DNA from: a virus
Virus record (IMG/VR): IMGVR_UViG_3300028840_004447
DNA length: 64,000 nucleotides
Direction: 5' to 3' (one strand)
The position numbers and the translations under genes were made by a program. This document shows positions 9,335 through 49,774 of this stretch, one piece after another. The notes under the pieces are model-generated. The model ran no database searches, was not told where the DNA came from, and was given only the letters and a program-made list of their open reading frames with translations. The first letter of the stretch is position 1; each line of letters begins with the position of its first letter.

Positions 9335-11551
9335 ATGACGACACCTAAGAAAAAGAAACCCGTTGCGAAGAAGGCTGCTCCCAGGAAAGCAGCTCCGAAG
9401 AAAGAAGCCCCGAAAAAACCAGCCGAGCCCGAGCTGAAGAAAGTCGCTGTAATCTGCGGACCGGGATTGGACAATCATCTCGGAGAAGTTGCCGATTTCC
9501 TAAAGGCAAACTATGAGGTCAAGATCTGTATCACTGCCGATCTGGAGACCATGTTCAATGCAGTCAAGTGGGCTGATGTAGTTTGGATTGAGTGGGCAAA
9601 CCAGACCGCCGTGGATGTAACATCTCTCGGCCATCTGATGTACCATAAGCAAGTGATTCTCCGCCTGCATTCATATGAGGCCTTTATCCCACAATTAGCT
9701 TACATCCATTGGGCCGCGGTCACGGATCTGATCTTTATAGCCGAGCATATCAAGGCCAAGGTCCTCAGGGATTATCCGACGATCAAATATAACGTGAACA
9801 GGATCCACGTTATACCAAATGGGATTGATTTAGACCGGTTCAAAATGCCGGCTTCCAAGAAGTATATGACTGCATCAGGCAAGGACATTGCCTATTTGGG
9901 ATATCTGAATTTCAAGAAGGGGACTCAGTTGATGCTCACGGCATTTGCTGAGCTCGTTCGGAATGACCCCGAGTTCGTTCTGCATATCGGGGGAGCATTC
10001 CAGGAAGAGCGATATATCGAATACCTGAACCAGATGTATGACCAGCATCCTGAGTTGAAGGACAAGATTCGCTTCCACGGCTGGATTGAGGATCCAGTCA
10101 AGTTCCTTTCTGACAAAAGCCATGTGATCTGCACCAGCTTGCTAGAGTCTCAGGCCAAGTTTGTTATGGAAGGGATGGCCATGGGCTGCAAGCCCCTGAT
10201 CCATAACTTCGTTGGGGCAAAGGGCATTTATCCTCCAGGCCTGCTTTGGGAAACGATTGGCCAGTTCTGTGATATGGCTCGGACTGGTGGCAATCGGGTA
10301 GTGTATCGGGATTTCATTCACGATAACTATAACACCAAAGACATAGTCAAGCGAATTGGGGATCTGATTGACAAATCGGATGAGAAGAAGGAAACATTCA
10401 AGGAAGGGGATCAGCCACCGATTAAGCTGTCAGTGGCGATGATCATGAAAGATGAAGAGAAGAACCTGCCGAGGTGCTTGGATTCCATAAAGGGGATTGC
10501 CGACGAATTGGTAATTGTGGACACAGGCTCGACAGATAAAAGCATGGAGATAGCAAAGAAATACGGGGCCAAGATCTATGAGCATCCGTGGCAGGACAAT
10601 TTCTCCTTGCATCGGAATCAGTCAATCGGCTACTGCACAGGTGACTGGATCCTCACAATCGATTGCGATGAAGAGCTGACCGGGAACGTGGAAGGCCTGA
10701 AGACTACCCTGTCGAAATTGCAAGATATCTATAACGCAGTTTCTATCAATCTCAAGGACGCGAATCAGGACGTTGGGAATGAGGTCAATGCAACTCGGAT
10801 CTTCAGGGCAGGCAAGGTCAAATATCGACGGGCCTGGCACAATGTTCCTATTGCAGAAGGCATGGATGAGTATGGGGCGGTGCTATATGCTGACGCGACC
10901 CTTATTCACTATGGATCAATCAATCAGATGGGTGAAGAGGATACGAAACGGAAGGCCATCAGGACGAAACAGTTGATTGAGAAATCCTTGGAGGACGATC
11001 CTGAAGATTGGGAGCTGTATTTCTACTTGTTCCAAACGTATGGGACAGAAGAGAAGTGGCAGGCTGCGGTGAATTGCGGGGAGAAATACCTTGCACAGAG
11101 AAACAATCTCCCCGGCTTTCAGTTGGCCATCTACCATTCCATGATTCGGGTATATGCAATCCATTTGGAAAACATCCCGAGGGCGATGGAGCTGTTTCAA
11201 GAAGCAATTATCCTTCTGCCCGAGGACTTAGATGTGGCTTACGTTCAGTGCGAGCTAGGTGTTCTGACCGGGCGTAAGGATATGATATTGGAAGGGGCGC
11301 GAAGATTCAACGTTTTGTATTCTACGTTCTCCAGGAATCCATCGGCAAAGGGCGGTCGGTTCATCTTCCATCTGAATCCCGATTCGCTATTTTTCTGTCT
11401 TAAGCACTCGACTGATTGTCTGATGCAGGACGGGGTCGAGTCCTTAAAGCTTCTGCAAAAGTCCGTGGGTCTCTTCCCGCAAGATCGGCGGGCTGACGTA
11501 GAAAAGCAGGTAGCAGAAGTGCTACAGCCATTGGGTATTGACACGAATTAA
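9335..11551 (+). CDS. Multidomain glycosyltransferase (GT-B/GT4-like + GT-A/GT2-like + TPR-like) with Lys-rich N-terminus
   Basis: VIPNGID...F, KGTQL, S..ESQ...MEGMAMG (GT4). LSVAMIMKDEE.NL.RCLDS...DE.VIVDTGSTD...W..NFS..RN......W...IDCDE (GT2). Helical C-terminus. Confidence 0.88.
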   Translation: MTTPKKKKPVAKKAAPRKAAPKKEAPKKPAEPELKKVAVICGPGLDNHLGEVADFLKANYEVKICITADLETMFNAVKWADVVWIEWANQTAVDVTSLGHLMYHKQVILRLHSYEAFIPQLAYIHWAAVTDLIFIAEHIKAKVLRDYPTIKYNVNRIHVIPNGIDLDRFKMPASKKYMTASGKDIAYLGYLNFKKGTQLMLTAFAELVRNDPEFVLHIGGAFQEERYIEYLNQMYDQHPELKDKIRFHGWIEDPVKFLSDKSHVICTSLLESQAKFVMEGMAMGCKPLIHNFVGAKGIYPPGLLWETIGQFCDMARTGGNRVVYRDFIHDNYNTKDIVKRIGDLIDKSDEKKETFKEGDQPPIKLSVAMIMKDEEKNLPRCLDSIKGIADELVIVDTGSTDKSMEIAKKYGAKIYEHPWQDNFSLHRNQSIGYCTGDWILTIDCDEELTGNVEGLKTTLSKLQDIYNAVSINLKDANQDVGNEVNATRIFRAGKVKYRRAWHNVPIAEGMDEYGAVLYADATLIHYGSINQMGEEDTKRKAIRTKQLIEKSLEDDPEDWELYFYLFQTYGTEEKWQAAVNCGEKYLAQRNNLPGFQLAIYHSMIRVYAIHLENIPRAMELFQEAIILLPEDLDVAYVQCELGVLTGRKDMILEGARRFNVLYSTFSRNPSAKGGRFIFHLNPDSLFFCLKHSTDCLMQDGVESLKLLQKSVGLFPQDRRADVEKQVAEVLQPLGIDTN

Positions 11552-34831: not shown

Positions 34832-35265
34832 ATTATTCTCCTTTTGTTTTTGCGGTCCAGGATCTCAACCAGTTCCGTAACAGGGATCGACCTCGACCAG
34901 TGTTGAACAGCATTCTCGATTAGTCCCGATCGGGGAACCTCCCCGAGGAATCCGTGACAAAGGTAATCGAAGATGAAATACTCCCGATCTACCTGAAGCA
35001 GAACAAACACATTTGCTCCAGCCATCCCGTGCCTCTTCAGCCAGCCTTTTTGGGCCGGGGTGAAATGGTCTAGCCTAAGCGGAGTAGTTGGACGCTTTGG
35101 CCATCTGTGAGCATACTTTAGCTCGATCCAGCCCATGGATCCATTCACGGTAGTTGTGAAGTATACATCCGGCGTCCCTTCATCAACTAGGTTCTCAATT
35201 CGTTCAGCAATCCAAACAGGCTTCATTCGATTATACAGATATCTCCAAAAACCAGATTCATTCAT
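34828..35265 (-). CDS. PD-(D/E)XK nuclease (VRR-NUC / resolvase-like)
   Basis: E..F...RIEN....GTPD......WIELK motif, adjacent to the polymerase. Confidence 0.75.
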   Translation of the reverse strand: MNESGFWRYLYNRMKPVWIAERIENLVDEGTPDVYFTTTVNGSMGWIELKYAHRWPKRPTTPLRLDHFTPAQKGWLKRHGMAGANVFVLLQVDREYFIFDYLCHGFLGEVPRSGLIENAVQHWSRSIPVTELVEILDRKNKRRII

Positions 35266-37196
35266 TTTACATCACTCCAATCTCTTCCCGTGTCAGGATC
35301 CACGACAACGGGAAGCTTCAGGGGGATTGCTCGTTCCATCAGTCGGGCCGATTCTGCAAAGGCCTCTTTTCCTGCGGGCGTGTTAGGAACCGACCAATCC
35401 AATTCATCGTGGACTGTCAGAAGAGGAAATCCAAGCTCGTCAAATATCCCTGCTTCAGCAATATCAACCATGGCCTGCTTCATGATATCGGCTGCGCTGC
35501 CCTGATCGATAGCATTGAAGGCCTTATAACAGCCGGCCCGCTGAACTCCCCAACCGCCCATCTTCTTGGTAATTTCCAGCATCTTTTGTTTGTCTTTCAT
35601 GGCCGTTACCTCTTTGGCCAGATCAAACTTGTTTGGCTCCCACAGATCAAACCTTCGTTTCCGACCGAGGATAGTTCGGACATATCCTTTCTTCATTGCC
35701 TGAGATGAGGCCGTATTCAAAGTTCGCTTCAGGAAGGGGAGCTTCTCATAGTACATTCTGATGAAGCTCTCGGCCTCATCCTTGGGAATCCCGAGGGAAA
35801 CAGCCAGCTTTGCAGCTCCCATGCCATATATGATCCCGAAGTTAATAGTCTTCGCAGCCTTCCGGCTGATCCCCGCGGTGTCTGCGCACCACTGATGATA
35901 ATCGAGGGCCCGGTCATTCTTGAATGCTTCCCGAATATCATCTGCTCCTTCCCCGATAGCAAAATGGGCCAAGACCCGAATCTCAATCTGAGAATAGTCA
36001 GCCCTGCCCCACAGTTCCCCTTCATCAGGAATGAAGATGGATCTGCACAGAGGACCGAGCTCAGGATCTCGGCCAGGGATAAACTGCAAGTTAGGATTGG
36101 AAGAACTGAAACGGCCAGTCACCGTCCCACCCTCGTCTCCCTTGAGCTGGTTGAACTGGCAGTGGATCCGATCCCCGATTACCTGGTCAAGCAAGGATCC
36201 TCGAAGGAAAGTACCGATGAATTTGTCGACCTTCCGATAGTCCACAATTAGCTTTGTGACATCAGATCCGTGCCGCTCGAGCCATGTTTGTTGGAAGGAT
36301 GGTTGACCTGTCTTGGTCCTTGGATAATCCCAGCCTTGCTTTTTGAAATAGCGGCCAATGGACTGGTTTGCCCACGGGTCAATATCGAACTTCGTTAATT
36401 GGTGGCTCAGGCGCTTAAGTTCCTGCTCCTTTCTGTCAATGGCCACATGCAATTTCTGCATGTCTACACGGACGCCACGCTGTCTCATTCCGAGCAAGAT
36501 AGGTATTAAGGCAGATTCCATTTTGAACAGATCTATCAGCCCTTCACGTTGCATTTTATCCCATTGCTTGAGAAAGATCTGAATCGGTTGGATAGCATCA
36601 GACTCGGCATATGGGCCGACAATGTTCGAGGGGAGTTTCCAGAGGTGTTCTTGGGGCTTGGATTTCTTGCTCTTTCTGAAGGGCCGGGTCGCTTCCTCGA
36701 TCAGGTCTTCATTTTTAGTTTCACCCAAATACTCCTGGCATAAACTGTCGAGGGAATAGACCCGTTTGTTCTCATCAATCAGGGGTTCTGCCACTTGGAC
36801 GTCATAAAATGGACCTGCAACAGGCACGCCCTCTGCATATAACCAGTCAAGGTCATAGAGCAGGTTTGCCCCGATCTTAGGTTGGTTGGGTCTGCACAGT
36901 TCTTGCCGGGCCCATTTGAGGACCACTTTCTTATTGAACTGCGGACCCTCAAAATGGCCGAATGGCAAATACCATGTCTGTCCTTCAGGAACCGCGATCG
37001 AAATCCCGAGAATATAGTTCCCCTCCCGACGGACACCAGGTCCTTTTGTTGTCAGGTCTTTGTCTCGGGTCTCGATATCCAGCCCAATAGCTCTTGCGTC
37101 TCCGAGTCGGGGGAGCTGTTCCGGAATTTCCCAATCTGATTTGGGCTGGAATAAAGGTTGCTGAAAGGCATCCACAGTCGACCTTGAGATTTCCAT
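35262..37196 (-). CDS. polA: Family A DNA polymerase with 3'-5' exonuclease
   Basis: DIET (ExoI), TGRFSSSNPNLQ, DYSQIE (motif A), AKTINFGIIYG (motif B, Phe at the 762-equivalent), VHDEL (motif C). Confidence 0.95.
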   Translation of the reverse strand: MEISRSTVDAFQQPLFQPKSDWEIPEQLPRLGDARAIGLDIETRDKDLTTKGPGVRREGNYILGISIAVPEGQTWYLPFGHFEGPQFNKKVVLKWARQELCRPNQPKIGANLLYDLDWLYAEGVPVAGPFYDVQVAEPLIDENKRVYSLDSLCQEYLGETKNEDLIEEATRPFRKSKKSKPQEHLWKLPSNIVGPYAESDAIQPIQIFLKQWDKMQREGLIDLFKMESALIPILLGMRQRGVRVDMQKLHVAIDRKEQELKRLSHQLTKFDIDPWANQSIGRYFKKQGWDYPRTKTGQPSFQQTWLERHGSDVTKLIVDYRKVDKFIGTFLRGSLLDQVIGDRIHCQFNQLKGDEGGTVTGRFSSSNPNLQFIPGRDPELGPLCRSIFIPDEGELWGRADYSQIEIRVLAHFAIGEGADDIREAFKNDRALDYHQWCADTAGISRKAAKTINFGIIYGMGAAKLAVSLGIPKDEAESFIRMYYEKLPFLKRTLNTASSQAMKKGYVRTILGRKRRFDLWEPNKFDLAKEVTAMKDKQKMLEITKKMGGWGVQRAGCYKAFNAIDQGSAADIMKQAMVDIAEAGIFDELGFPLLTVHDELDWSVPNTPAGKEAFAESARLMERAIPLKLPVVVDPDTGRDWSDVK

Positions 37197-37585
37197 AAAT
37201 CCTTTCCTTCTGTCGGGTAATCCTCATCAAAGACAAGGATCGTGCATGAAGTGTTGAGGAGCATGGCCGTACAGATAAGGCAAGGGGCCGTTGTAATGAA
37301 GGCCATTTGTATGCTGTAAGGATCCTGGCATTGCAATACAGCATTTACCTCAGCATGTACGGCCACGCATTTATCAAGATCCTGTCCACTTCTGCCGATC
37401 CTCGGGCACGATGCTTCAGTGCAGTGGGGCATCCCGGCTGGAATACCGTTATACCCCGTTGCCTTGATATGGTTCCGCTCATTGACGAGGACACAACCGA
37501 CTTTCCGGGTCAGGCAAGTGGATCGCTGTGCAACCAACTTGGCCAGCTCCATAAAGTATTCATATTGGTCCAGTCTGGGTTTCAT
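37052..37585 (-). CDS. dCMP deaminase-like zinc deaminase
   Basis: RSTC..RKVG, TGYNG.P.G.PHC, HAE.NA, PC..C. The 3' end overlaps the polymerase start by 145 nt. Confidence 0.9.
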   Translation of the reverse strand: MKPRLDQYEYFMELAKLVAQRSTCLTRKVGCVLVNERNHIKATGYNGIPAGMPHCTEASCPRIGRSGQDLDKCVAVHAEVNAVLQCQDPYSIQMAFITTAPCLICTAMLLNTSCTILVFDEDYPTEGKDLWKSQGRLWMPFSNLYSSPNQIGKFRNSSPDSETQELLGWISRPETKT

Positions 37586-38301
37586 TAGAAGATATTCCTG
37601 TCCTTCAGATCCCCGTGGAATGCATGCAAAGATCCAAGAAAGTGAGTGAAGTTCCCCGCTTCGATACGGAGTTCTTCTGCAATGTGCTTCATCAGTTGGA
37701 TTGTAAGGAAAACGTCCGCGCCGAAGAACTTGATGAAATCACAGGATCGCTGGTTGTAGATCAGATGCAGCTTGTTTGCCCGAATCATGAACTGGTAGGT
37801 CAAACTGCACGGAACTCTGTCACGTCCGCCCCAGTTCATCATATCCTGGTGCCGATCATACATGGTCATGATGGCCTGCCGGGAGTTCGGCCGAAGTCGG
37901 AGTTCATTTACGACATAGCTGATCTGTTCTTGCCACCGCTCCGCGTATGAATAGGAGAACTTGCCGTCACGAAGGAAAGGTTCCCACAATTGCTTGTTCT
38001 CTTTCCAAGCTGTGCCGGGGTTCAGGGTTGCCCCGACCGGCATTCCGAACAGACCGCCCAGCCGTTCTCGCTCTTCGGCCTTCAGCCAAGCAGCATTCAA
38101 ATTGAGGTACTGAATGAGCTCGGACAGGTCTTCATATTTGGTAAGTGTGTATGCGTACCCGAAAAGCTCGATGGTCTGGAAGTCTGGGTTATCCGCAACC
38201 TCCTGATCCTGAACCGTGGCCGTTTGGTATCTGATCCCCATTTCAAACAGATCCCGCTCGACCTCTTTCACCATTTCTAACGTGTTCTGATAAATCCTCA
38301 T
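37585..38301 (-). CDS. Thymidylate-synthase-family enzyme with dCMP-type specificity residue (putative dCMP hydroxymethylase/methylase)
   Basis: SRQA, catalytic PC, QRSCDFIKFFGAD (Asp where dUMP enzymes have Asn177), GSLH.F. Confidence 0.8.
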   Translation of the reverse strand: MRIYQNTLEMVKEVERDLFEMGIRYQTATVQDQEVADNPDFQTIELFGYAYTLTKYEDLSELIQYLNLNAAWLKAEERERLGGLFGMPVGATLNPGTAWKENKQLWEPFLRDGKFSYSYAERWQEQISYVVNELRLRPNSRQAIMTMYDRHQDMMNWGGRDRVPCSLTYQFMIRANKLHLIYNQRSCDFIKFFGADVFLTIQLMKHIAEELRIEAGNFTHFLGSLHAFHGDLKDRNIF

Positions 38302-38478
38302 TCATGCCTCCTTTTTGACTTTCTGAGGGTTAAGATATAACTTGCAAAACGACTTCATATAAAGACGATAGCATTTCACGGTACATACATGGTCGCCATT
38401 ATCTAATTTCCACATGGATCGGCAGTTTGTGAGATTTGTCCCGCATTCTGCACAGTATATTTCTTGCTCAGTTTCCAT
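38302..38478 (-). CDS. Small Cys-rich (zinc-finger-like) protein, probably leaderless
   Basis: CAECG...HVC...C. The ATG lies 7 nt from the -10 box and has no RBS. Confidence 0.5.
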   Translation of the reverse strand: METEQEIYCAECGTNLTNCRSMWKLDNGDHVCTVKCYRLYMKSFCKLYLNPQKVKKEA

Positions 38479-38484
38479 GGGTTC

Positions 38485-38513
38485 TTTATACCATAAAGAA
38501 ATTATTCTGTAAA
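38485..38513 (-). promoter_or_regulatory. sigma70-type promoter
   Basis: TTTACA-N17-TATAAA. Confidence 0.75.
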
Positions 38514-38520
38514 CCATTTT

Positions 38521-38590
38521 TCAAAAAAGGACGCCCGACCAGGGAGGTAGTCTGGCCAGGCGCCCGAACTCGGATCTGGTTGGCGGCGAG
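38521..38590 (-). terminator. Double hairpin plus U-tract after the C5-MTase-like gene
   Basis: On the - strand: CTCGGACTGGTT..AACCAGATCCGAG, then GGGCGCCTGGCCAG..CTGGTCGGGCGTCC-TTTTTT. Confidence 0.75.
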
Positions 38591-38602
38591 AACCAGTCCG
38601 AG

Positions 38603-39826
38603 CTACCTCTTACAAGGCAACCAGCAAGTTTGACAGATGAGCTTTTGCCGTGCCTTGGGTTTGTATCCGTGGGTCTCACAATACCATTTCTTCGCCTCAT
38701 CGATATAGGGATTCGGGTTGATGACCCGCTGATTGAAGAGCTTCTCCCGGGTTTCCACAACGGGTTTCCCCGCGATATGGGCTGCAATAAGTTCAGCCAC
38801 ATACGTGCAGAACTGAACCGGCATGAATTTGCCGATCTGCTTATAGACAGCCGAATAGGTTTTGAAGTCCCTCAGGTAATCCAGCGGATAGAAAATGAAA
38901 TCATCCGGGCATCCTTGGATCCTTGCCCGTTCCCGCATGGTCAGGGGATTCAACGTGTCCTCTCTGTAGTGGTTATCGAGAGCAGATCCCCCGCCGGTCA
39001 TAACGGGGCAGGTATTGTCCAGACAGATCTTCGAATAGCCGGGTTTGAAATGCTGGACACCCTGCTTGTTGTAGTACTGAAAGTTCCGCTTTGAAGGATA
39101 ATCCCTGATGACCTCTTTGAAGTCGCCCAGGGTCACAACCTCCTTGTCTCGGGTCTCAGCGAAATTGTGTGGGCTGAACCCGTGCAGCCGATCCTTATCC
39201 TTCACATGCACGTGATTGATCTTTTTGATGTCCCTCTTCGGAGGTAGTCCTTTGAGCATATGCCGCAAATGGGTAATGTGCTCAAATTCCCCCGGGACAA
39301 AAACGAACTTTTCCTTCTTCAGTGCACCGATCATGAAGAACCGCCGACGGAAGAACTGCGAATTGCCGTAATGGTAATTCGAAATCCATTCGGGGAACAA
39401 ATCGTAGTCGGGCAGGGCCTCTTTCCATTGCTGAATTGTCCAGCCGATCAGTGACTTCGGAAGGTTGTCCTGAACGAAGAACCGTGGCTTCAGGCGATTG
39501 ACCAGTTCACAAAATAGCGGAATATCTCCCGGGTCTTTCAGCTTAGCCGTCTTGTTCGGCCTGAGGTTGGAATAGGATCCACACTCGGGATGACCCATGG
39601 CCAGATCTATCTTCCCCCGAAGAGCACGGATCTGTTTCTCATCCAGTTCATCTATCTTATGGACGAGGAATGCTCCGGGGAAATTCTCGGTGAATGTGTT
39701 CCGGCCTTGGTCGTCCTGCCAATGGTAGTATGGACGCCATTCAATATTTCCGAGGACAGTAAATCCTGCCGCTCGGGCTCCGATCAGCATCGAGCCGATC
39801 CCTGATGTTAGTCCAATTGCCCTCAT
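38603..39826 (-). CDS. Divergent DNA cytosine-C5 methyltransferase homolog (possible carboxymethyl/alkyl transferase)
   Basis: Start ATG 39826 with RBS GAAGGAG. Motifs I LTSGIGS, IV GHPECGSYS, VI QDNL, VIII Q..RRR, IX RERARIQG.PDDF, X QIGKFMPV. Confidence 0.8.
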   Translation of the reverse strand: MRAIGLTSGIGSMLIGARAAGFTVLGNIEWRPYYHWQDDQGRNTFTENFPGAFLVHKIDELDEKQIRALRGKIDLAMGHPECGSYSNLRPNKTAKLKDPGDIPLFCELVNRLKPRFFVQDNLPKSLIGWTIQQWKEALPDYDLFPEWISNYHYGNSQFFRRRFFMIGALKKEKFVFVPGEFEHITHLRHMLKGLPPKRDIKKINHVHVKDKDRLHGFSPHNFAETRDKEVVTLGDFKEVIRDYPSKRNFQYYNKQGVQHFKPGYSKICLDNTCPVMTGGGSALDNHYREDTLNPLTMRERARIQGCPDDFIFYPLDYLRDFKTYSAVYKQIGKFMPVQFCTYVAELIAAHIAGKPVVETREKLFNQRVINPNPYIDEAKKWYCETHGYKPKARQKLICQTCWLPCKR

Positions 39827-39828
39827 AA

Positions 39829-40698
39829 CTATTTCTCCTTCCTGAATACCAAAATGGTTTGGTATGCCGGAACTTTGATATCCAGATCCGGAAACCGTTT
39901 GTTGTATGTGTTCATGAACAGGGTCGGCGGATAATGGGGCAGGAGCGCCATACAAACGAACTCCATCCCGAGGCCGAGAAGAATCTCCCCGTACATCTTA
40001 TGGAGCAGGTACGGGGCTTTGTTCTGAACCATGTCCTTCACGCCGATGCAGAAATGCCCGCCAGCCTTCAGCATGCCCAAGCTGTCCTCATAGATCTGCC
40101 GAATGTCGTCCCAATATTGTGGAGTTTCCTTCATCCGGCCGAGACCCTTCTGTTGCAAATAGAACGCGGTGCTGGGTTTCCCGAAGATCTTTTGATGCTG
40201 ATCCCCGGAGTACGGGGGATTGTTTACAATTAGGCCGAACTTCCTGCGACCGAGATGCTTGCGGATATCCCGTGCGTCTCCATCCACGATGTTCCACTGA
40301 ATGGACTTGGGGAGTCCCTGCTCCTTCCAGACATAGTTCACATTTGCCTGAGCATACTCGGCAAACTCCAGTTCAACACCGGCTGCACACCTGCCCAGCA
40401 TCATGGCTTCGACGGCTGTTGTCCCGACGCCAATTGTGGGATCAAGCACCCAGTCTTTCGGTTTGGAAAATTCCTGAATGCACCAGCGGGCAACATGGAG
40501 AGGAGTCTTGGCAATATGGGCGAGGTCGGCCTGTTTGTTGTAATACTGCCGGCGCTCCAGTTTGCTATACGGGGTTCCATCAGGACGGATCAGGACGCCG
40601 CGGAATGTCTTGGGCTTGCAGAAGTCACAGTTGCAGTGATAATCCTTTGGCGTCCGTTTGAGGGGCTTTACTTCAACAGTCTCAATCTCATACTTCAT
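39829..40698 (-). CDS. Amino (N6-A / N4-C type) methyltransferase
   Basis: VLDPTIGVGTT (SAM binding), GDAR, NNPPY (catalytic). N-terminal HCNCDFC. Confidence 0.82.
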   Translation of the reverse strand: MKYEIETVEVKPLKRTPKDYHCNCDFCKPKTFRGVLIRPDGTPYSKLERRQYYNKQADLAHIAKTPLHVARWCIQEFSKPKDWVLDPTIGVGTTAVEAMMLGRCAAGVELEFAEYAQANVNYVWKEQGLPKSIQWNIVDGDARDIRKHLGRRKFGLIVNNPPYSGDQHQKIFGKPSTAFYLQQKGLGRMKETPQYWDDIRQIYEDSLGMLKAGGHFCIGVKDMVQNKAPYLLHKMYGEILLGLGMEFVCMALLPHYPPTLFMNTYNKRFPDLDIKVPAYQTILVFRKEK

Positions 40699-41072
40699 AA
40701 TTCCTCCTTATCGTAATGTCTTGTGGATATGCGTTTTCGTTCGGGGTTGTATCCTGTGTCACCCTTCCCGATCGGCACGATTACAGAGAAGCCGAAAAGC
40801 AGGGGCATCCCTTCTGCGGATAGGATATTGTTGCAGCAAAACTCGAGCAGGGATTCCATGCCGTGCAGTCTCTCGACGAAGTCCGCTAGTTTCCGCTTTC
40901 GGTAATCAACCTCACCGGCCAAGGAAATAGCTTTGAGTATATTCTCCTTCAATACTTCTTCAGGGGAATGCTCATCCATGATCCCGACCAAAAGCCAGGA
41001 CAGCAATTCCGATCCCTTATAAACCGGGAGTGGTTCACTGCCCTGGATCTTTACCCAAGCTTGAACTCGCAT
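40695..41072 (-). CDS. Hypothetical protein within the modification cluster
   Basis: Tightly coupled to both neighbours. No recognisable motif. Confidence 0.55.
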   Translation of the reverse strand: MRVQAWVKIQGSEPLPVYKGSELLSWLLVGIMDEHSPEEVLKENILKAISLAGEVDYRKRKLADFVERLHGMESLLEFCCNNILSAEGMPLLFGFSVIVPIGKGDTGYNPERKRISTRHYDKEEL

Positions 41073-41073
41073 A

Positions 41074-41502
41074 TTAGTACTCGGACCGCTGGCGGAATTT
41101 GTTGACGAGGGATTTCTTCAGATACAGCATGGCCACATCCTTCGCATCCAGACCGGACAGGATAAACAGTTCGACCATGAAGTGAAGTGCATCTGCCAGC
41201 TCTTCATAGAAGTGATCCCGGTCGGTGAGCATCTGTGTCTGTTTCCAGGGTTTGTTCTTCAGGCAGTTCATGGCTTCGCCGAGCTCCTCGGTCACTCTCC
41301 AGGCGAAGTCTTTCAGTCGGGCCTGACCCTTGGCCGAGTCCAGATCAACAGGCACATCGGGCGAAAGGAGTAGGTCATTTGCAGCCTCAATCGGATGGTA
41401 CTTTTCCATGAGTTCTTTCTGCCGATCGAAGATAGCCTCGAGCATATCTGTATCCCCGAGGAAGTCCAGAATGTCTTCATCAGTTACATCGTTGATGTTC
41501 AT
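41074..41502 (-). CDS. All-alpha NTP pyrophosphohydrolase (dimeric dUTPase/dCTPase/MazG-like)
   Basis: EELGEA, KPWK, EELADALHF, Y..K..VN..RQ..Y. Confidence 0.85.
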   Translation of the reverse strand: MNINDVTDEDILDFLGDTDMLEAIFDRQKELMEKYHPIEAANDLLLSPDVPVDLDSAKGQARLKDFAWRVTEELGEAMNCLKNKPWKQTQMLTDRDHFYEELADALHFMVELFILSGLDAKDVAMLYLKKSLVNKFRQRSEY

Positions 41503-42862
41503 AGTACATTTCCTCCGCTAATCCTTTGAATTGGTTGATTAAGTGTAGCCGCCAGCTCATTTTGTCCTGACGGATGGCTGGGATCTTCAGGGCTTCTTTC
41601 TTCCGTGCTTGTATAGCTTGGGGGACAATATCTGCAAAGGTCTTCTTCAGGATTCGCTTGTTCATACGCCTCTCGTAAGGGATCTGTAGGGCGTTATTCA
41701 CGACATCCGGGGCTAAGAACGGGCTCCTGAGCTCCACGGTACTGGCCATCATCAGCCGATCCAACCGGGGCAAATGGTAATATACCAGTTCATCAAAGAT
41801 GTCCGTGTATTGGCTGTCATACTGCGCTATACGACGGTATCCGCCGAACAGCTCATCAGCCCCATCACCTGAGATTGCTACGTCGAATCCTTCCTTCCTG
41901 ATTGCCCGACCTAACAGATATTGGGGGAGCATGGATCCAAGGTCGACTGGTGTCTGGTTTGCAGCCAATGCCCCGAGCAGATCATCCCCCTCGAGTTCAA
42001 TCTGCTTCAGTTCCACACCTGAGAAGTCAATGTAGTTCAGCCACTCAGCCTCGTCGTTGTCCACGTGGAACACGGTCAGGGGTTGGTTGGAGAATTCTCG
42101 GGTGAGGTAATACACGATTGTGCTGTCCAGTCCTCCTGATACTAATAAGGAGACTGGCACATCTGATACCAGCCGATTCTTGACTGCTTCCTCAATGGCT
42201 GTTCTGAGCTCCCGGGTAGGTTGCCGTGGCCATTGGAGATTCTGCCTGAGGATATGCTCGACTTGCAGGTTCTCCATATTCAGGATCATATGGCAGTTCG
42301 CTGGGATCTTCATTATGTTTTTGAACGGGGTGGTCTCGGCTGGGTGATAGCCCCATTTAGCAGTGGCCGACATATTGTGCTGATCCCATTCCAGCTCATC
42401 AAGGAGCAGCATCAGTGGGAGAATCTCCGAGCAGATTGCTACAGATTCCTCGGCCACCATAATGTATAGGGGTTTCTTTGCAAGATGGTCAGTGAAGATA
42501 TGGGCGCGCTTGCCCGTGATTCTGCGATGGCCGTCTATATGCACAATAGACCAGAAGCCATCAAACCACTCAAAACTCTGGATGGGAATCCTGCCCATCA
42601 TCAGATCGTGGACGGCCTCGATATCTGAGGAATAGTCCCCGAACGTTTTGTAGTTGAATATCTCTCCGACGAATAAGGTCTGATCCCGAAACGGTTGGTC
42701 AAACTCAGGATCCAATCCTTGAATAGGCAGGCGGACGTGCCCCAGGGAATAGGTCGCGAAATGTTCGGCCCGCGACCTGATCCCCCGATGGGTCATGTGG
42801 TTGATCAGGGTGAGTAGATTTTCTTCATGGTTTTTTCCGATACATAGGGCTAATCCACACAT
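41480..42862 (-). CDS. Asparagine synthetase B-like glutamine amidotransferase
   Basis: N-terminal MCG (Ntn nucleophile), HRG, GH.RL.I, GEI.N, KPLY, SGGLDS, SGDGADELFGGY, DR..MA..VE.R.PFL. Confidence 0.92.
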   Translation of the reverse strand: MCGLALCIGKNHEENLLTLINHMTHRGIRSRAEHFATYSLGHVRLPIQGLDPEFDQPFRDQTLFVGEIFNYKTFGDYSSDIEAVHDLMMGRIPIQSFEWFDGFWSIVHIDGHRRITGKRAHIFTDHLAKKPLYIMVAEESVAICSEILPLMLLLDELEWDQHNMSATAKWGYHPAETTPFKNIMKIPANCHMILNMENLQVEHILRQNLQWPRQPTRELRTAIEEAVKNRLVSDVPVSLLVSGGLDSTIVYYLTREFSNQPLTVFHVDNDEAEWLNYIDFSGVELKQIELEGDDLLGALAANQTPVDLGSMLPQYLLGRAIRKEGFDVAISGDGADELFGGYRRIAQYDSQYTDIFDELVYYHLPRLDRLMMASTVELRSPFLAPDVVNNALQIPYERRMNKRILKKTFADIVPQAIQARKKEALKIPAIRQDKMSWRLHLINQFKGLAEEMYYEHQRCN

Positions 42863-43370
42863 CGTGCAATTCCTCCGTTGGCATGGTATCCCGATTGAAC
42901 CAGAGAATATTCAAACCCGATCGGACCATCCTCATCATCACCCGGTCGTACTGGTAGATGAGACGCAGTCGCTGAGCCTGAACCTTCTCCACATGGTCGG
43001 GCAGTTTGTGTGCTTTGGCTGTTATAAGGTGCCCCGTGATCGTCTTGATTGATGGACGACAGAAGACGATGAGAGGATCCTCTTTGAGTAGCCGACCAGT
43101 AAAGGACTGGATATCCTCATCTGATAGGAGACAGCCATCGCGGACAATGGGACCATATACCTGCTCGGAAAAGAGTGCGAACCGATCCACAAGGGTCTCT
43201 TTCCCGGGCTGTTGCAGATCCAGGACGGAGTCCATACGGCAGAGCAAATCCGCCCTCGATTTCGGTGGTCCCTGGGTCGGAAACAGGGAGAAGCTATCTG
43301 GGGCTTTTTCGAGTAGGTACTGCACCAGATAACTCTTCCCTGAACCGTCCGGGCCTTCGAAGATGATCAT
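42825..43370 (-). CDS. P-loop nucleotide (dNMP-like) kinase
   Basis: IIFEGPDGSGKS Walker A and DR motif (VDRF). Confidence 0.8.
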   Translation of the reverse strand: MIIFEGPDGSGKSYLVQYLLEKAPDSFSLFPTQGPPKSRADLLCRMDSVLDLQQPGKETLVDRFALFSEQVYGPIVRDGCLLSDEDIQSFTGRLLKEDPLIVFCRPSIKTITGHLITAKAHKLPDHVEKVQAQRLRLIYQYDRVMMRMVRSGLNILWFNRDTMPTEELHDVWISPMYRKKP

Positions 43371-43371
43371 C

Positions 43372-44232
43372 TTAGGCCTCGTCCCCCGTTGCCACGGAGT
43401 AGGTCTTATCCTTCCGGTTGAACTGAATGTCGATCATGTTCTCCGGCTTGGTTCGCTTGGCGTTCCGGAGAATGGCACAGGCGGTGACCAGATTCTTGGC
43501 ATCATACCCGGTCCGCTCAATGAGCTCTTCCTGCTTCCAGACAGGCTTCTCATCGAAGGCGGACTTCAGGAGACTGGACTTGGTAATCCGCGGTGCCGGT
43601 TTGCCGAGGGCCTTCAGCCCCTCGAAGATGGTGCTGGTCAGCTCCCCTTTGTTCTTCCCGGGGCCGTCCAGTTCGAGGGCCTTCTTCAGGCGTTTCAGAT
43701 CCCCGACGGACAGTTCAGCGAGGTCTTCCTCTTTCGCGATTTCCATGTAAACATCGTCGGCGCAGATCTCTTTTGCGGCCTTCGCGCTGTTCACGGTTTC
43801 CTTCAGTGTCATTTCGTTTGTGTCAATGATAAATCTCTTAGCCATGGTGGGCCTCCTTTTAGTGTTGGGTCTCGATGACCCGAAGTTAGATTTGATGAAA
43901 GCTTCCTGATCTTCCACGCTGAGTACTATATCACCTTTCAAGCGCCTTGTAAATAAATTTTTCCGTATTTCTTTGTTATTTTTCACGCAATTACGGCAGT
44001 ATACGTCCGTCTCTGCCTTGAAGAAGCACCATCGTTTGTTGACCAACCATCCATGGAAGGGACAGTTGAAATCATCAGGCACGAACTCCCGATCAGTCTT
44101 CTTCGTGCAGTCCTCGACACATGGCCAGACATTACCCTTAGACTCCCGATGGTAGTATTGCCTGTATGCGCATTCGAGGACGGTAATCTGATCTTCCTCT
44201 TTCTCCTGATTCGGACAGATGAACTCGGTCAT
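43372..44232 (-). CDS. Winged-helix-like DNA-binding protein, family member 1 (internal start 43845; Cys-rich N-extension)
   Basis: Internal RBS AAGGAGG before MAKRF. C-terminus ITKSSLLKSAFDEKPVWKQEEL.ERTGYD.KNL..A..ILRN.KRTK. Confidence 0.6.
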   Translation of the reverse strand: MTEFICPNQEKEEDQITVLECAYRQYYHRESKGNVWPCVEDCTKKTDREFVPDDFNCPFHGWLVNKRWCFFKAETDVYCRNCVKNNKEIRKNLFTRRLKGDIVLSVEDQEAFIKSNFGSSRPNTKRRPTMAKRFIIDTNEMTLKETVNSAKAAKEICADDVYMEIAKEEDLAELSVGDLKRLKKALELDGPGKNKGELTSTIFEGLKALGKPAPRITKSSLLKSAFDEKPVWKQEELIERTGYDAKNLVTACAILRNAKRTKPENMIDIQFNRKDKTYSVATGDEA

Positions 44233-49213: not shown

Positions 49214-49774
49214 CTATTTCGACAGGATCCAGGTCGCTATCTGATCCTCGGGGCCATATTTTGCATGTAACTCGACCCGAAGACTGTGATCAGAAAAGAA
49301 GGAATTGTAATCATGATAAAAGCAATGCTTCGACGGAACCCGTCCTTCGATTCCGACTGATGAAGTTAGGAAGATCAGCCCGTTGGAAATCCGAACGTGC
49401 TCTGCAAAGATCCCGGCCAGGTCCTGAGGAGGAACATGCAGAAGGACATATGAAGAGATAACCAGATCAAATGCCCCCTCTGCTTCAGGGATCTGGTGGC
49501 CGTCCCATCCATTTGGCCGTTGCCCTGTTGCAGCTAGACAGCACGTTCGCATGGATTCCACAAAGTCATACATGGTCAGCCGAGCGCGGAACAGCAAACC
49601 TTTCTTCTCTAGGGCTGAATAGATCCGACCATAGCCAGACCCCACCTCGCAAATCTTTCGGAGAGGTTCCGTTTGCAGCAAGGCGGACAGGTAGTCCAGT
49701 TCAATATCATGGGTTTCTCCGCGGTAGGACTTCCCCCGCGCTTCCCAGTATTCTTTCGGATTGTAAGTGGTCAC
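49214..49774 (-). CDS. Class I SAM-dependent methyltransferase (small-molecule/glycan type)
   Basis: YWE.R, ICEVGSGYGR, FDLV.S..VL.HV. Confidence 0.85.
   Translation of the reverse strand: MTTYNPKEYWEARGKSYRGETHDIELDYLSALLQTEPLRKICEVGSGYGRIYSALEKKGLLFRARLTMYDFVESMRTCCLAATGQRPNGWDGHQIPEAEGAFDLVISSYVLLHVPPQDLAGIFAEHVRISNGLIFLTSSVGIEGRVPSKHCFYHDYNSFFSDHSLRVELHAKYGPEDQIATWILSK

Follow-up and report, generated by a model that had tools for sequence, protein, structure and literature searches.

We analyzed a 64,000-nucleotide stretch of the viral record IMGVR_UViG_3300028840_004447 (IMG/VR), here called the window. It is part of an uncultured phage genome of about 78 kb, which several studies have sampled in metagenomes of sediment and seawater. 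The window carries a gene module of a thymidylate synthase-like enzyme (TS-like enzyme), an asparagine synthetase-like amidotransferase (AsnB homolog) and a homolog of the DNA cytosine-C5 methyltransferases (C5-MTase) with a lysine in motif X. We tentatively propose, with slightly less than even confidence, that, prior to replication, this module exchanges the cytosine of the DNA for a derivative with an acid at C5, that this derivative is subsequently amidated, and that the Lys-type C5-MTase is an accessory acting on the same group. The module is widespread among uncultured phages and probably provides an amide-bearing base in place of cytosine. The three central genes are:

37585..38301, minus strand: TS-like enzyme (PF00303, 2.8e-15)
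41480..42862, minus strand: glutamine-dependent AsnB-like amidotransferase of 460 amino acids (Asn_synthase, 1.1e-44, and GATase_7)
38603..39826, minus strand: C5-MTase-like enzyme of the Lys type (PF00145, 9.6e-23; His79, Glu81, Cys82, Asp120, Lys333 and a C-terminal Cys4)

Co-occurrence of the three enzymes in related viruses

With the C5-MTase homolog as anchor 64 IMG/VR loci were obtained, and 50 contigs were searched, 18 of them being at least 90% complete. A TS homolog was present in 48 of the 50 contigs and in all 18 complete genomes, AsnB in 40 and 15, respectively. The usual gene order was AsnB, MazG, methyltransferase, TS-like enzyme, deaminase and family A DNA polymerase (PolA), with variations. 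As a second anchor the AsnB homolog was used. From its 435 relatives in IMG/VR the best 80 loci were taken and 78 loci were tallied. Here, the methyltransferase was present in 14 of the 78 loci, a TS homolog in 56 and a deaminase in 58. The genes of the TS-like enzyme, AsnB and the deaminase usually formed a trio, abutting or overlapping in many loci, and the deaminase gene directly followed AsnB in most loci without the C5-MTase.

Furthermore, 50 AsnB-bearing contigs without the methyltransferase, including 8 complete genomes, were searched in their full length. Proteins of the family PF00145 were found in none of the 50 contigs and 8 complete genomes, jumbo phages of 343-373 kb included, and all 8 complete genomes carried the TS-like enzyme. 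The closest relative of the window (contig L076) had the gene order of the window minus the C5-MTase and contained no PF00145 protein. Since AsnB needs the TS-like enzyme and not the methyltransferase, and each complete genome with the methyltransferase also has the TS-like enzyme, the latter is the hub of the module. Judged by this distribution, the C5-MTase is an add-on to a core of TS-like enzyme and AsnB. An earlier sequence-only reading of the window had expected AsnB and the C5-MTase to occur together. This applies from the side of the C5-MTase, whereas AsnB is not tied to it.

The two enzymes are additionally connected by residue 81 of the C5-MTase homolog, located directly before the catalytic Cys. 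In 49/49 family members with AsnB in the locus a Glu or Asp was found at this position together with the motif X Lys. The members without AsnB in the contig (L057, L059, L062, L065, L066, L069 and L070, the last being a short contig that was not searched whole for AsnB) carried Tyr, Ser or Lys, thus an acidic residue in 0/7, and Lys, Arg or Asn in motif X. Because L057 sits in an otherwise AsnB-positive clade, at least two independent events are indicated. The AsnB-less relatives L062 (10001-11062) and L066 (9430-10530) combined GHPKC with an Arg in motif X. This other charge pattern around C5 may reflect a sister chemistry.

In 50,697 phage records the search at the DNA level resulted only in short matches to a dUTPase gene. 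At the protein level no close homolog of the C5-MTase or AsnB was found in these records, the best AsnB match being a distant one in Streptomyces phage TurkishDelight (27%). A scan of genome contigs yielded only four contigs of metagenome-assembled genomes, probably mis-binned phage, and identified no host. The system is without a cultured representative.

The TS-like enzyme

The TS-like enzyme was aligned with E. coli ThyA and T4 gp42, and residues were tallied in two sets of 52 and 55 TS-like proteins, which overlap by about 10 contigs. Arg162, Cys165, Arg185, Asp188, Asp196 and His226 correspond to ThyA L143R, C146, R166, D169, N177D and H207, respectively; the ThyA numbering is used below. 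Cys146, Tyr94, Arg166, Ser167, His207 and Asp169 are kept, and Arg143, Asp177 and Asp169 were invariant (52/52 and 55/55). Position 58 was never Glu, position 172 was Lys or Arg in 43/52 proteins, and position 173 was His or Phe. Just about 13 residues follow His207.

Asp177 is the cytosine mark, which agrees with the deoxycytidine monophosphate (dCMP)-type TS homolog described by the sequence-only reading. Position 143 is elsewhere Leu in methyl-forming enzymes and Asp or Glu in hydroxymethylases. The TS-like enzyme shares Asp177 with the T4-type dCMP hydroxymethylases, but its residue 143 is Arg and not acidic, and Glu58 is lacking throughout. The flavin-type 5-hydroxy-dCMP synthases are marked by D169N (PMC13326640), whereas Asp169 is invariant here, so that the TS-like enzyme does not belong to them. 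Positions 143 and 173 of ThyA are located within 6 Å of C5 (PMC13326640). Taken together, Arg143, Lys/Arg172, His/Phe173, the missing Glu58 and the short C-terminus suggest that the hydrophobic folate-side pocket near C5 has turned basic, as would suit an anionic co-substrate or product. The best sequence matches in the PDB were 9IQU and 9IQC, and no literature was found under these codes. The TS-like enzyme is not needed for the synthesis of thymidine monophosphate (dTMP), since the phage has its own ThyX outside the window (L012:6480-7217).

The AsnB-like amidotransferase

The AsnB homolog is a complete glutamine-dependent enzyme as stated by the sequence-only reading, with an Asn_synthase and a GATase_7 domain, an N-terminal Met-Cys-Gly and the SGGLDS motif. 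Cys2, the Gly-Glu of the glutaminase site and SGGLDS are invariant in the family. The protein is approximately 95 amino acids shorter than E. coli AsnB and scored below the equivalog cut-offs for asparagine synthetase (TIGR01536, 197.8 bits, cut-off 267.1; PRK09431, 138.6 versus 499). Enzymes of the AsnB family act on carboxylates. Since AsnB additionally follows the TS-like enzyme in its distribution, the product of the latter would carry a carboxylate which is amidated by AsnB. A predicted complex of both proteins scored 0.21 (mark 0.32), which is evidence neither way.

In the T4-like contig L094 (5057-12571) the genes flanking the trio of TS-like enzyme, AsnB and deaminase encode KdsA-like, KdsB-like, phosphomannomutase/HAD and UDP-glucose dehydrogenase proteins, so an acid sugar may be attached in this lineage. 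For the window, an amidation of acid sugars on a glycosylated base by AsnB was considered and rejected: no such sugar-nucleotide genes were found near the module, and the sole glycosyltransferase is located in the structural block.

The Lys-type C5-MTase homolog

The gene starts with the ATG at 39826 (407 amino acids) and not with the TTG at 39955. The protein scored 81.5 bits with PF00145 (cut-off 22) and has the catalytic Cys of motif IV. HMMER alignments to the PDB placed 'ghpecgsys' on 'ggppcqsws' of HaeIII, 'ffvqdnl' on 'fflaenv' and 'ykqigkfmpv' on 'ykmignavpv', with Cys82 on the catalytic Cys of HaeIII. Asp120 and Lys333 stand in the places of the canonical motif VI ENV Glu and motif X Asn. 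The changes from PC to PEC, from ENV to DNL and from Asn to Lys in motif X, already pointed out by the sequence-only reading, were thus confirmed by HMMER and BLASTP alignments and by conservation in the family. They are fixed in a family of more than 500 metagenomic proteins: a large protein search gave 567 homologs, and among the best 120 (41-78% identity) Lys333 was present in 120/120, Cys82 and Asp120 in 119/120 each, His79 in 117 and Glu or Asp81 in 115.

Glu29-Trp30 are conserved in the family and equivalent to Glu40-Trp41 of HhaI, which bind the ribose and the adenine of the cofactor. Due to this conservation an adenosyl cofactor is probably still bound. An extra element of four Cys is found at the C-terminus. 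The AlphaFold2 model (pLDDT 93, pTM 0.92) has the fold of the DNA C5-MTases, and DNA-bound C5-MTases were matched in Foldseek. In the related contig L067 (8807-10969) the methyltransferase gene is split by an intein carrying a DUF559/MTES_1575 endonuclease, which suggests that the gene matters to the phage.

A basic residue in motif X is known from the Cmo system of Synechococcus phage S-B43, where CmoA makes carboxy-S-adenosylmethionine (Cx-SAM) and CmoX (SPPC, Arg350) uses it to make 5-carboxymethylcytosine (Yang et al. 2025, PMC12783734). In the structure of SpCmoX (8YF3) Arg350 contacts the carboxylate of Cx-SAM, and R350N abolished all activity (PMC12783734). BLASTP aligned Cys82 with Cys98 and Lys333 with Arg350 of SpCmoX at about 21% identity, so the motif X Lys does match the position of a carboxymethyltransferase, as the sequence-only reading had it. 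However, GHPEC (GH[PT][ED]C in the family) is found in place of the SPPC motif of CmoX, and the residue at the position of SpCmoX R350 and HhaI N304 is basic but not Arg. In Foldseek 8YF3 ranked only 34th, and the fold was no closer to it than to HhaI or HaeIII. Because of this low rank, the C5-MTase homolog is an independent lineage rather than a CmoX subgroup. It has no special kinship to CmoX, and none of the AsnB homolog to the ligase CmoY is apparent.

Proposed pathway and alternative explanations

Gene content, residue patterns and co-occurrence were observed directly, and from them we infer every chemical step and the product as follows. The TS-like enzyme would put an acid-bearing substituent on C5 of dCMP. 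The product would be phosphorylated by the kinase and incorporated by PolA, which would have to accept the modified deoxynucleoside triphosphate. MazG would clear the normal nucleotide, and the deaminase and ThyX would supply dTMP. The AsnB-like enzyme would adenylate the carboxylate and amidate it with glutamine-derived ammonia. The Lys-type C5-MTase may be a lineage-specific accessory at the DNA level, whose Lys333, in parallel to Arg143 of the TS-like enzyme, would contact the same C5-linked acid or amide. It would either install the group on cytosines that escaped replacement or alkylate the substituted base with the bound adenosyl cofactor. The amino-methyltransferase with an NPPY motif, encoded next to it, may be a second optional tailoring enzyme.

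A more specific form of this pathway seems somewhat unlikely. Two unrelated Cys-dependent C5 enzymes, one of TS fold on dCMP and one of C5-MTase fold on DNA, each with a basic residue beside C5, would handle a carboxyl substituent which is made without folate-type one-carbon transfer or Cx-SAM, for instance when CO2 or glyoxylate adds directly to the carbanion at C5. After amidation by AsnB this would give an undescribed base, for example 5-carboxamido- or 5-(carbamoyl-hydroxymethyl)-cytosine, which would take the place of all cytosine in hundreds of uncultured phages, jumbo phages among them.

If the module as a whole functions as suggested by the genome comparison, cytosine would be replaced by a chemistry that is new, and the resulting base would probably be new among natural DNA bases as well. 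The module is spread over a large, global set of uncultured phages, given the AsnB relatives mentioned above and more than 500 homologs of the Lys-type methyltransferase. Arg143 would mark a third product class of phage TS homologs beside methyl/hydroxymethyl and hydroxyl, and a natural Lys-type C5 transferase would be at hand for DNA labelling tools.

Several points weigh against the proposed replacement and amidation. Asp169, the pterin binder of ThyA, is invariant, and folate may still be used. The product could then be plain 5-methyl- or 5-hydroxymethyl-dCMP, which would leave AsnB without an obvious carboxylate. We know of no precedent for productive chemistry of a Cys-dependent C5 enzyme on a cytosine already substituted at C5. 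Experiments on M.MpeI N374K and SpCmoX R350 provide a direct precedent for the transfer of carboxymethyl groups with a Lys at the position of the Cx-SAM carboxylate. The covariation of residue 81 with AsnB comes from a small sample, in which the independent events may number two to four, and phylogeny is a confounding factor. Furthermore, the acid-sugar genes (KdsA/KdsB-like, UDP-glucose dehydrogenase) in some AsnB loci could supply another carboxylate.

The precedent of M.MpeI and SpCmoX leads to a different explanation, in which the Lys-type enzyme has become a CmoX by convergence and transfers a carboxymethyl group from the Cx-SAM of the host to C5 of unmodified DNA cytosine, AsnB makes 5-carbamoylmethylcytosine from it, and the TS-like kit is separate or partial. 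The position of Lys333 fits, as do the co-occurrence and covariation of AsnB and the methyltransferase, and SpCmoX alone makes 5-carboxymethylcytosine in E. coli with the CmoA of the host (PMC12783734). A large cluster of ligases with a glutaminase domain is found next to CmoX, for which ammonia was proposed as substrate (PMC12783734), and TurkishDelight carries such a cassette. The idea of a carboxymethylated cytosine combined with a glutamine-type ligase, presented as a candidate for a new pathway in the sequence-only reading, has therefore already been proposed. However, CmoA itself was missing. The profile TIGR00740, which detected the CmoA of S-B43 at 2.5e-34 as positive control, had no match in the window, as the sequence-only reading had noted, and none in the 50 related contigs and 18 complete genomes, whereas 4257 CmoA genes were reported alongside 5615 CmoX (PMC12783734). 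No member of a CmoA-type family was found among the listed genes of the flanks outside the window. Two other candidates were rejected, namely a class I S-adenosylmethionine methyltransferase of 186 amino acids in the window (49214-49774, minus strand; Methyltransf_11/25/23), which showed neither a TIGR00740 match nor similarity to SpCmoA, and an FkbM-type methyltransferase outside the window. Since a true CmoA passed the curated cut-off in only 1/14 control bacteria, a supply by the host is no safe assumption for a phage family of this breadth.

The distribution also argues against a convergent CmoX: AsnB orthologs occur in 8 complete genomes without the C5-MTase, and the methyltransferase is always accompanied by the TS-like enzyme in complete genomes (18/18; 48/50 contigs). 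Moreover, a kit for deoxycytidine replacement is present, which comprises the TS-like enzyme, kinase, MazG, deaminase and, beyond the window, ThyX. With such a kit C5 probably carries a substituent already and would not be free. The fold is no nearer to 8YF3 than to HhaI or HaeIII, and with the hidden Markov model of the AsnB family E. coli AsnB reached 168 bits and the ligase gp124 of TurkishDelight an equivalent 165 bits, against 15 bits for SpCmoY. We therefore consider this explanation unlikely. From the carboxymethylation with subsequent amidation suggested by the sequence-only reading, the position of Lys333 and the co-occurrence and covariation of the C5-MTase with AsnB stand, while the absence of CmoA and the TS-like enzyme as partner of AsnB speak against it.

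Alternatively, the TS-like enzyme may make ordinary 5-hydroxymethyl- or 5-methyl-dCMP, an option raised already in the sequence-only reading. The methyltransferase-like enzyme would re-activate the base in DNA (Cys on C6, exocyclic methylene), a carboxylate-bearing nucleophile or group would be added and AsnB would amidate it. C5-MTases can couple 5-hydroxymethylcytosine with thiols in vitro. Asp177 with the retained Asp169, Tyr94 and His207 fits folate-type chemistry, and hydroxymethyl products go along with a polar residue at position 143. However, the substrate of AsnB would be left unexplained in the many phages with TS-like enzyme and AsnB but no methyltransferase, and Arg143 (not Asp/Glu) and the missing Glu58 set the enzyme apart from all characterised hydroxymethylases. 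We consider this route quite unlikely. It is very unlikely that the enzyme is just a divergent 5-methylcytosine methylase for anti-restriction beside nucleotide-metabolism genes, linked to AsnB by inheritance of the gene order. Orphan methylases of phages, and fusions with N6/N4 methylases, are common, and a complete C5-MTase fold, in which the residues for cofactor binding and catalysis are conserved, would agree with such a function. On the other hand, the motif X Lys, the Asp for the ENV Glu and the Glu between Pro and Cys are maintained in over 100 proteins of 40-78% identity, the TS-like enzyme is present in 18/18 complete genomes, and residue 81 co-varies with AsnB. In addition, the loss of all activity in SpCmoX R350N indicates that the motif X position is not neutral.

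Organization of the locus and additional genes

The module is located in a minus-strand block from 35262 to 44232. In the direction of transcription a run consists of orf286, kinase, AsnB homolog, MazG/dUTPase_2, orf125, NPPY methyltransferase and C5-MTase homolog, its genes abutting or overlapping. On the same strand, orf71, the TS homolog, the dCMP deaminase and the family A polymerase follow 3' of a terminator. The tightly coupled run of AsnB homolog, kinase, nucleoside triphosphate (NTP) pyrophosphatase, open reading frame without assignment and NPPY methyltransferase, closed by a terminator, had been described by the sequence-only reading and agrees with the gene calls, the profiles (Pfam, PHROG and NCBIfam) and the folding of the terminator. 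The remaining features of the block are:

43372..44232, minus strand: orf286, head of the run; homologs are located upstream of the kinase in related PolA phages
42825..43370, minus strand: P-loop kinase, deoxynucleoside monophosphate/thymidylate kinase-like (PHROG 761 thymidylate kinase, E 3.7e-13)
41074..41502, minus strand: MazG/dUTPase_2-type NTP pyrophosphohydrolase (PF08761, 1.4e-07; PHROG 12184 nucleotide pyrophosphohydrolase, 2.2e-37)
40695..41072, minus strand: orf125, kept at the same position in 4 close relatives
39829..40698, minus strand: NPPY amino-methyltransferase (N6_N4_Mtase, 3.8e-16, motif I part only)
38518..38602, minus strand: intrinsic terminator of two hairpins and a U6 tract
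38302..38517, minus strand: orf71, first gene past the terminator
37052..37585, minus strand: dCMP deaminase (PF00383, 2.6e-17; HAE and PCxxC zinc motifs)
35262..37196, minus strand: family A DNA polymerase (Pfam DNA_pol_A)

The terminator lies directly after the stop codon of the C5-MTase homolog. It was found by folding (38518-38605: -46.3 kcal/mol, z -5.45; 0/200 shuffles as good) and was missed by a simple terminator scan. No Pfam, PHROG or NCBIfam match was obtained for orf286 and orf125, and neither a Pfam or PHROG match nor a homolog in the related loci for orf71. An assignment of orf125 as DUF1599 protein was rejected, since it has no similarity to the DUF1599 protein at the equivalent place in contig L095.

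In the related loci the P-loop kinase was present in 17/65 and the MazG-type pyrophosphohydrolase, with a likely role in the clearance of dCTP or dUTP, in 26/65, and the family A polymerase adjoined the module in 37/65. Fusions of TS-like enzymes with thymidylate kinases and of TS with deaminases are known in viruses. In two relatives (L059:5648-6826 and L034:7648-8637) the kinase of the module is fused to a UDG-superfamily domain. The NPPY methyltransferase is permuted when compared to PF01555, motif I preceding NPPY, and is fused to the C5-MTase homolog in four proteins (L001, L034, L052 and P0110). In contig L085 (1268-6128) the genes are arranged in the order TS-like enzyme, S-adenosylhomocysteine hydrolase, NPPY methyltransferase, AsnB and deaminase; the hydrolase next to the methyltransferase hints at a high-flux use of S-adenosylmethionine. 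A DUF1599 'nucleotide modification associated' protein is encoded just upstream of that module.

The flanks outside the window contain ThyX, an SNF2 helicase, a terminase and a portal gene, as well as a Pyr_excise domain (L012:13968-14429) and a NUDIX domain (L012:14426-14881). Inside the structural gene block of the window (9335-11551, plus strand) a protein of 738 amino acids with GT1 and GT2 glycosyltransferase domains and TPR is encoded. It could glycosylate virion proteins and, less likely, DNA.

Comparison with known systems

Neighbourhoods of deaminase, TS with Asp177, pyrophosphatase and PolA mark viral contigs that were experimentally shown to be cytosine-modified (bioRxiv 10.1101/2024.12.05.627091). 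The T4-type replacement of deoxycytidine (gp42 dCMP hydroxymethylase, gp1 kinase, gp56 dCTPase, cd deaminase) and the Xp12-type 5-methylcytosine resemble the present module in a TS homolog with Asp177, a deoxynucleoside monophosphate kinase, an NTP pyrophosphatase, a dCMP deaminase and a separate ThyX. The module differs from them by Arg143 (Asp/Glu in hydroxymethylases, Leu in methylases), the missing Glu58, the basic positions 172-173 and the AsnB-type amidotransferase. The 5-hydroxy-dCMP synthases of RB69 and DLP3 (Lee et al. 2026, PMC13326640) share the phage TS fold, Asp177, a re-tooled cofactor pocket and the best PDB match 9IQU/9IQC, but their D169N is not found here. The hypermodification of thymidine (5-hydroxymethyl-deoxyuridine, kinase and aGPT-Pplase; Lee et al. 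2018, 2021) follows the same logic, as the product of a TS homolog is incorporated and then tailored on DNA. Here, in contrast, the base is cytosine, the tailoring enzymes belong to other families, and no aGPT-Pplase or 5-HMUDK homolog was identified.

The closest known systems also include the Cmo systems of S-B43 and TurkishDelight. The CmoY of S-B43 is an Asn_synthase-family ligase without glutaminase domain that adds glycine (PMC12783734). In TurkishDelight (NC_073473 gp121-125, L157:3179-8207) we found two ParB genes, a CmoX (GSPPC, ENV, Arg), a glutamine-type ligase of 466 amino acids and CmoA. With this phage, the use of ammonia predicted for a ligase of the published Cmo system could be tested in a cultured virus. 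The window shares with these systems an enzyme of C5-MTase fold, whose residue at the position of HhaI Asn304 is basic and which is encoded beside an Asn_synthase-family ligase, and the expected amide on the C5 substituent of a DNA cytosine. In the C5-MTase homolog of the window, Arg is replaced by Lys, SPPC by GHPEC and the ENV Glu by Asp, and a Cys4 element is added at the C-terminus. CmoA, a CmoX proper and ParB are missing from the module, and its ligase has a glutaminase domain, unlike S-B43 CmoY, and appears no nearer to CmoY-type ligases than to E. coli AsnB. Finally, both enzymes depend here on the TS-like enzyme, which the Cmo systems do not have.

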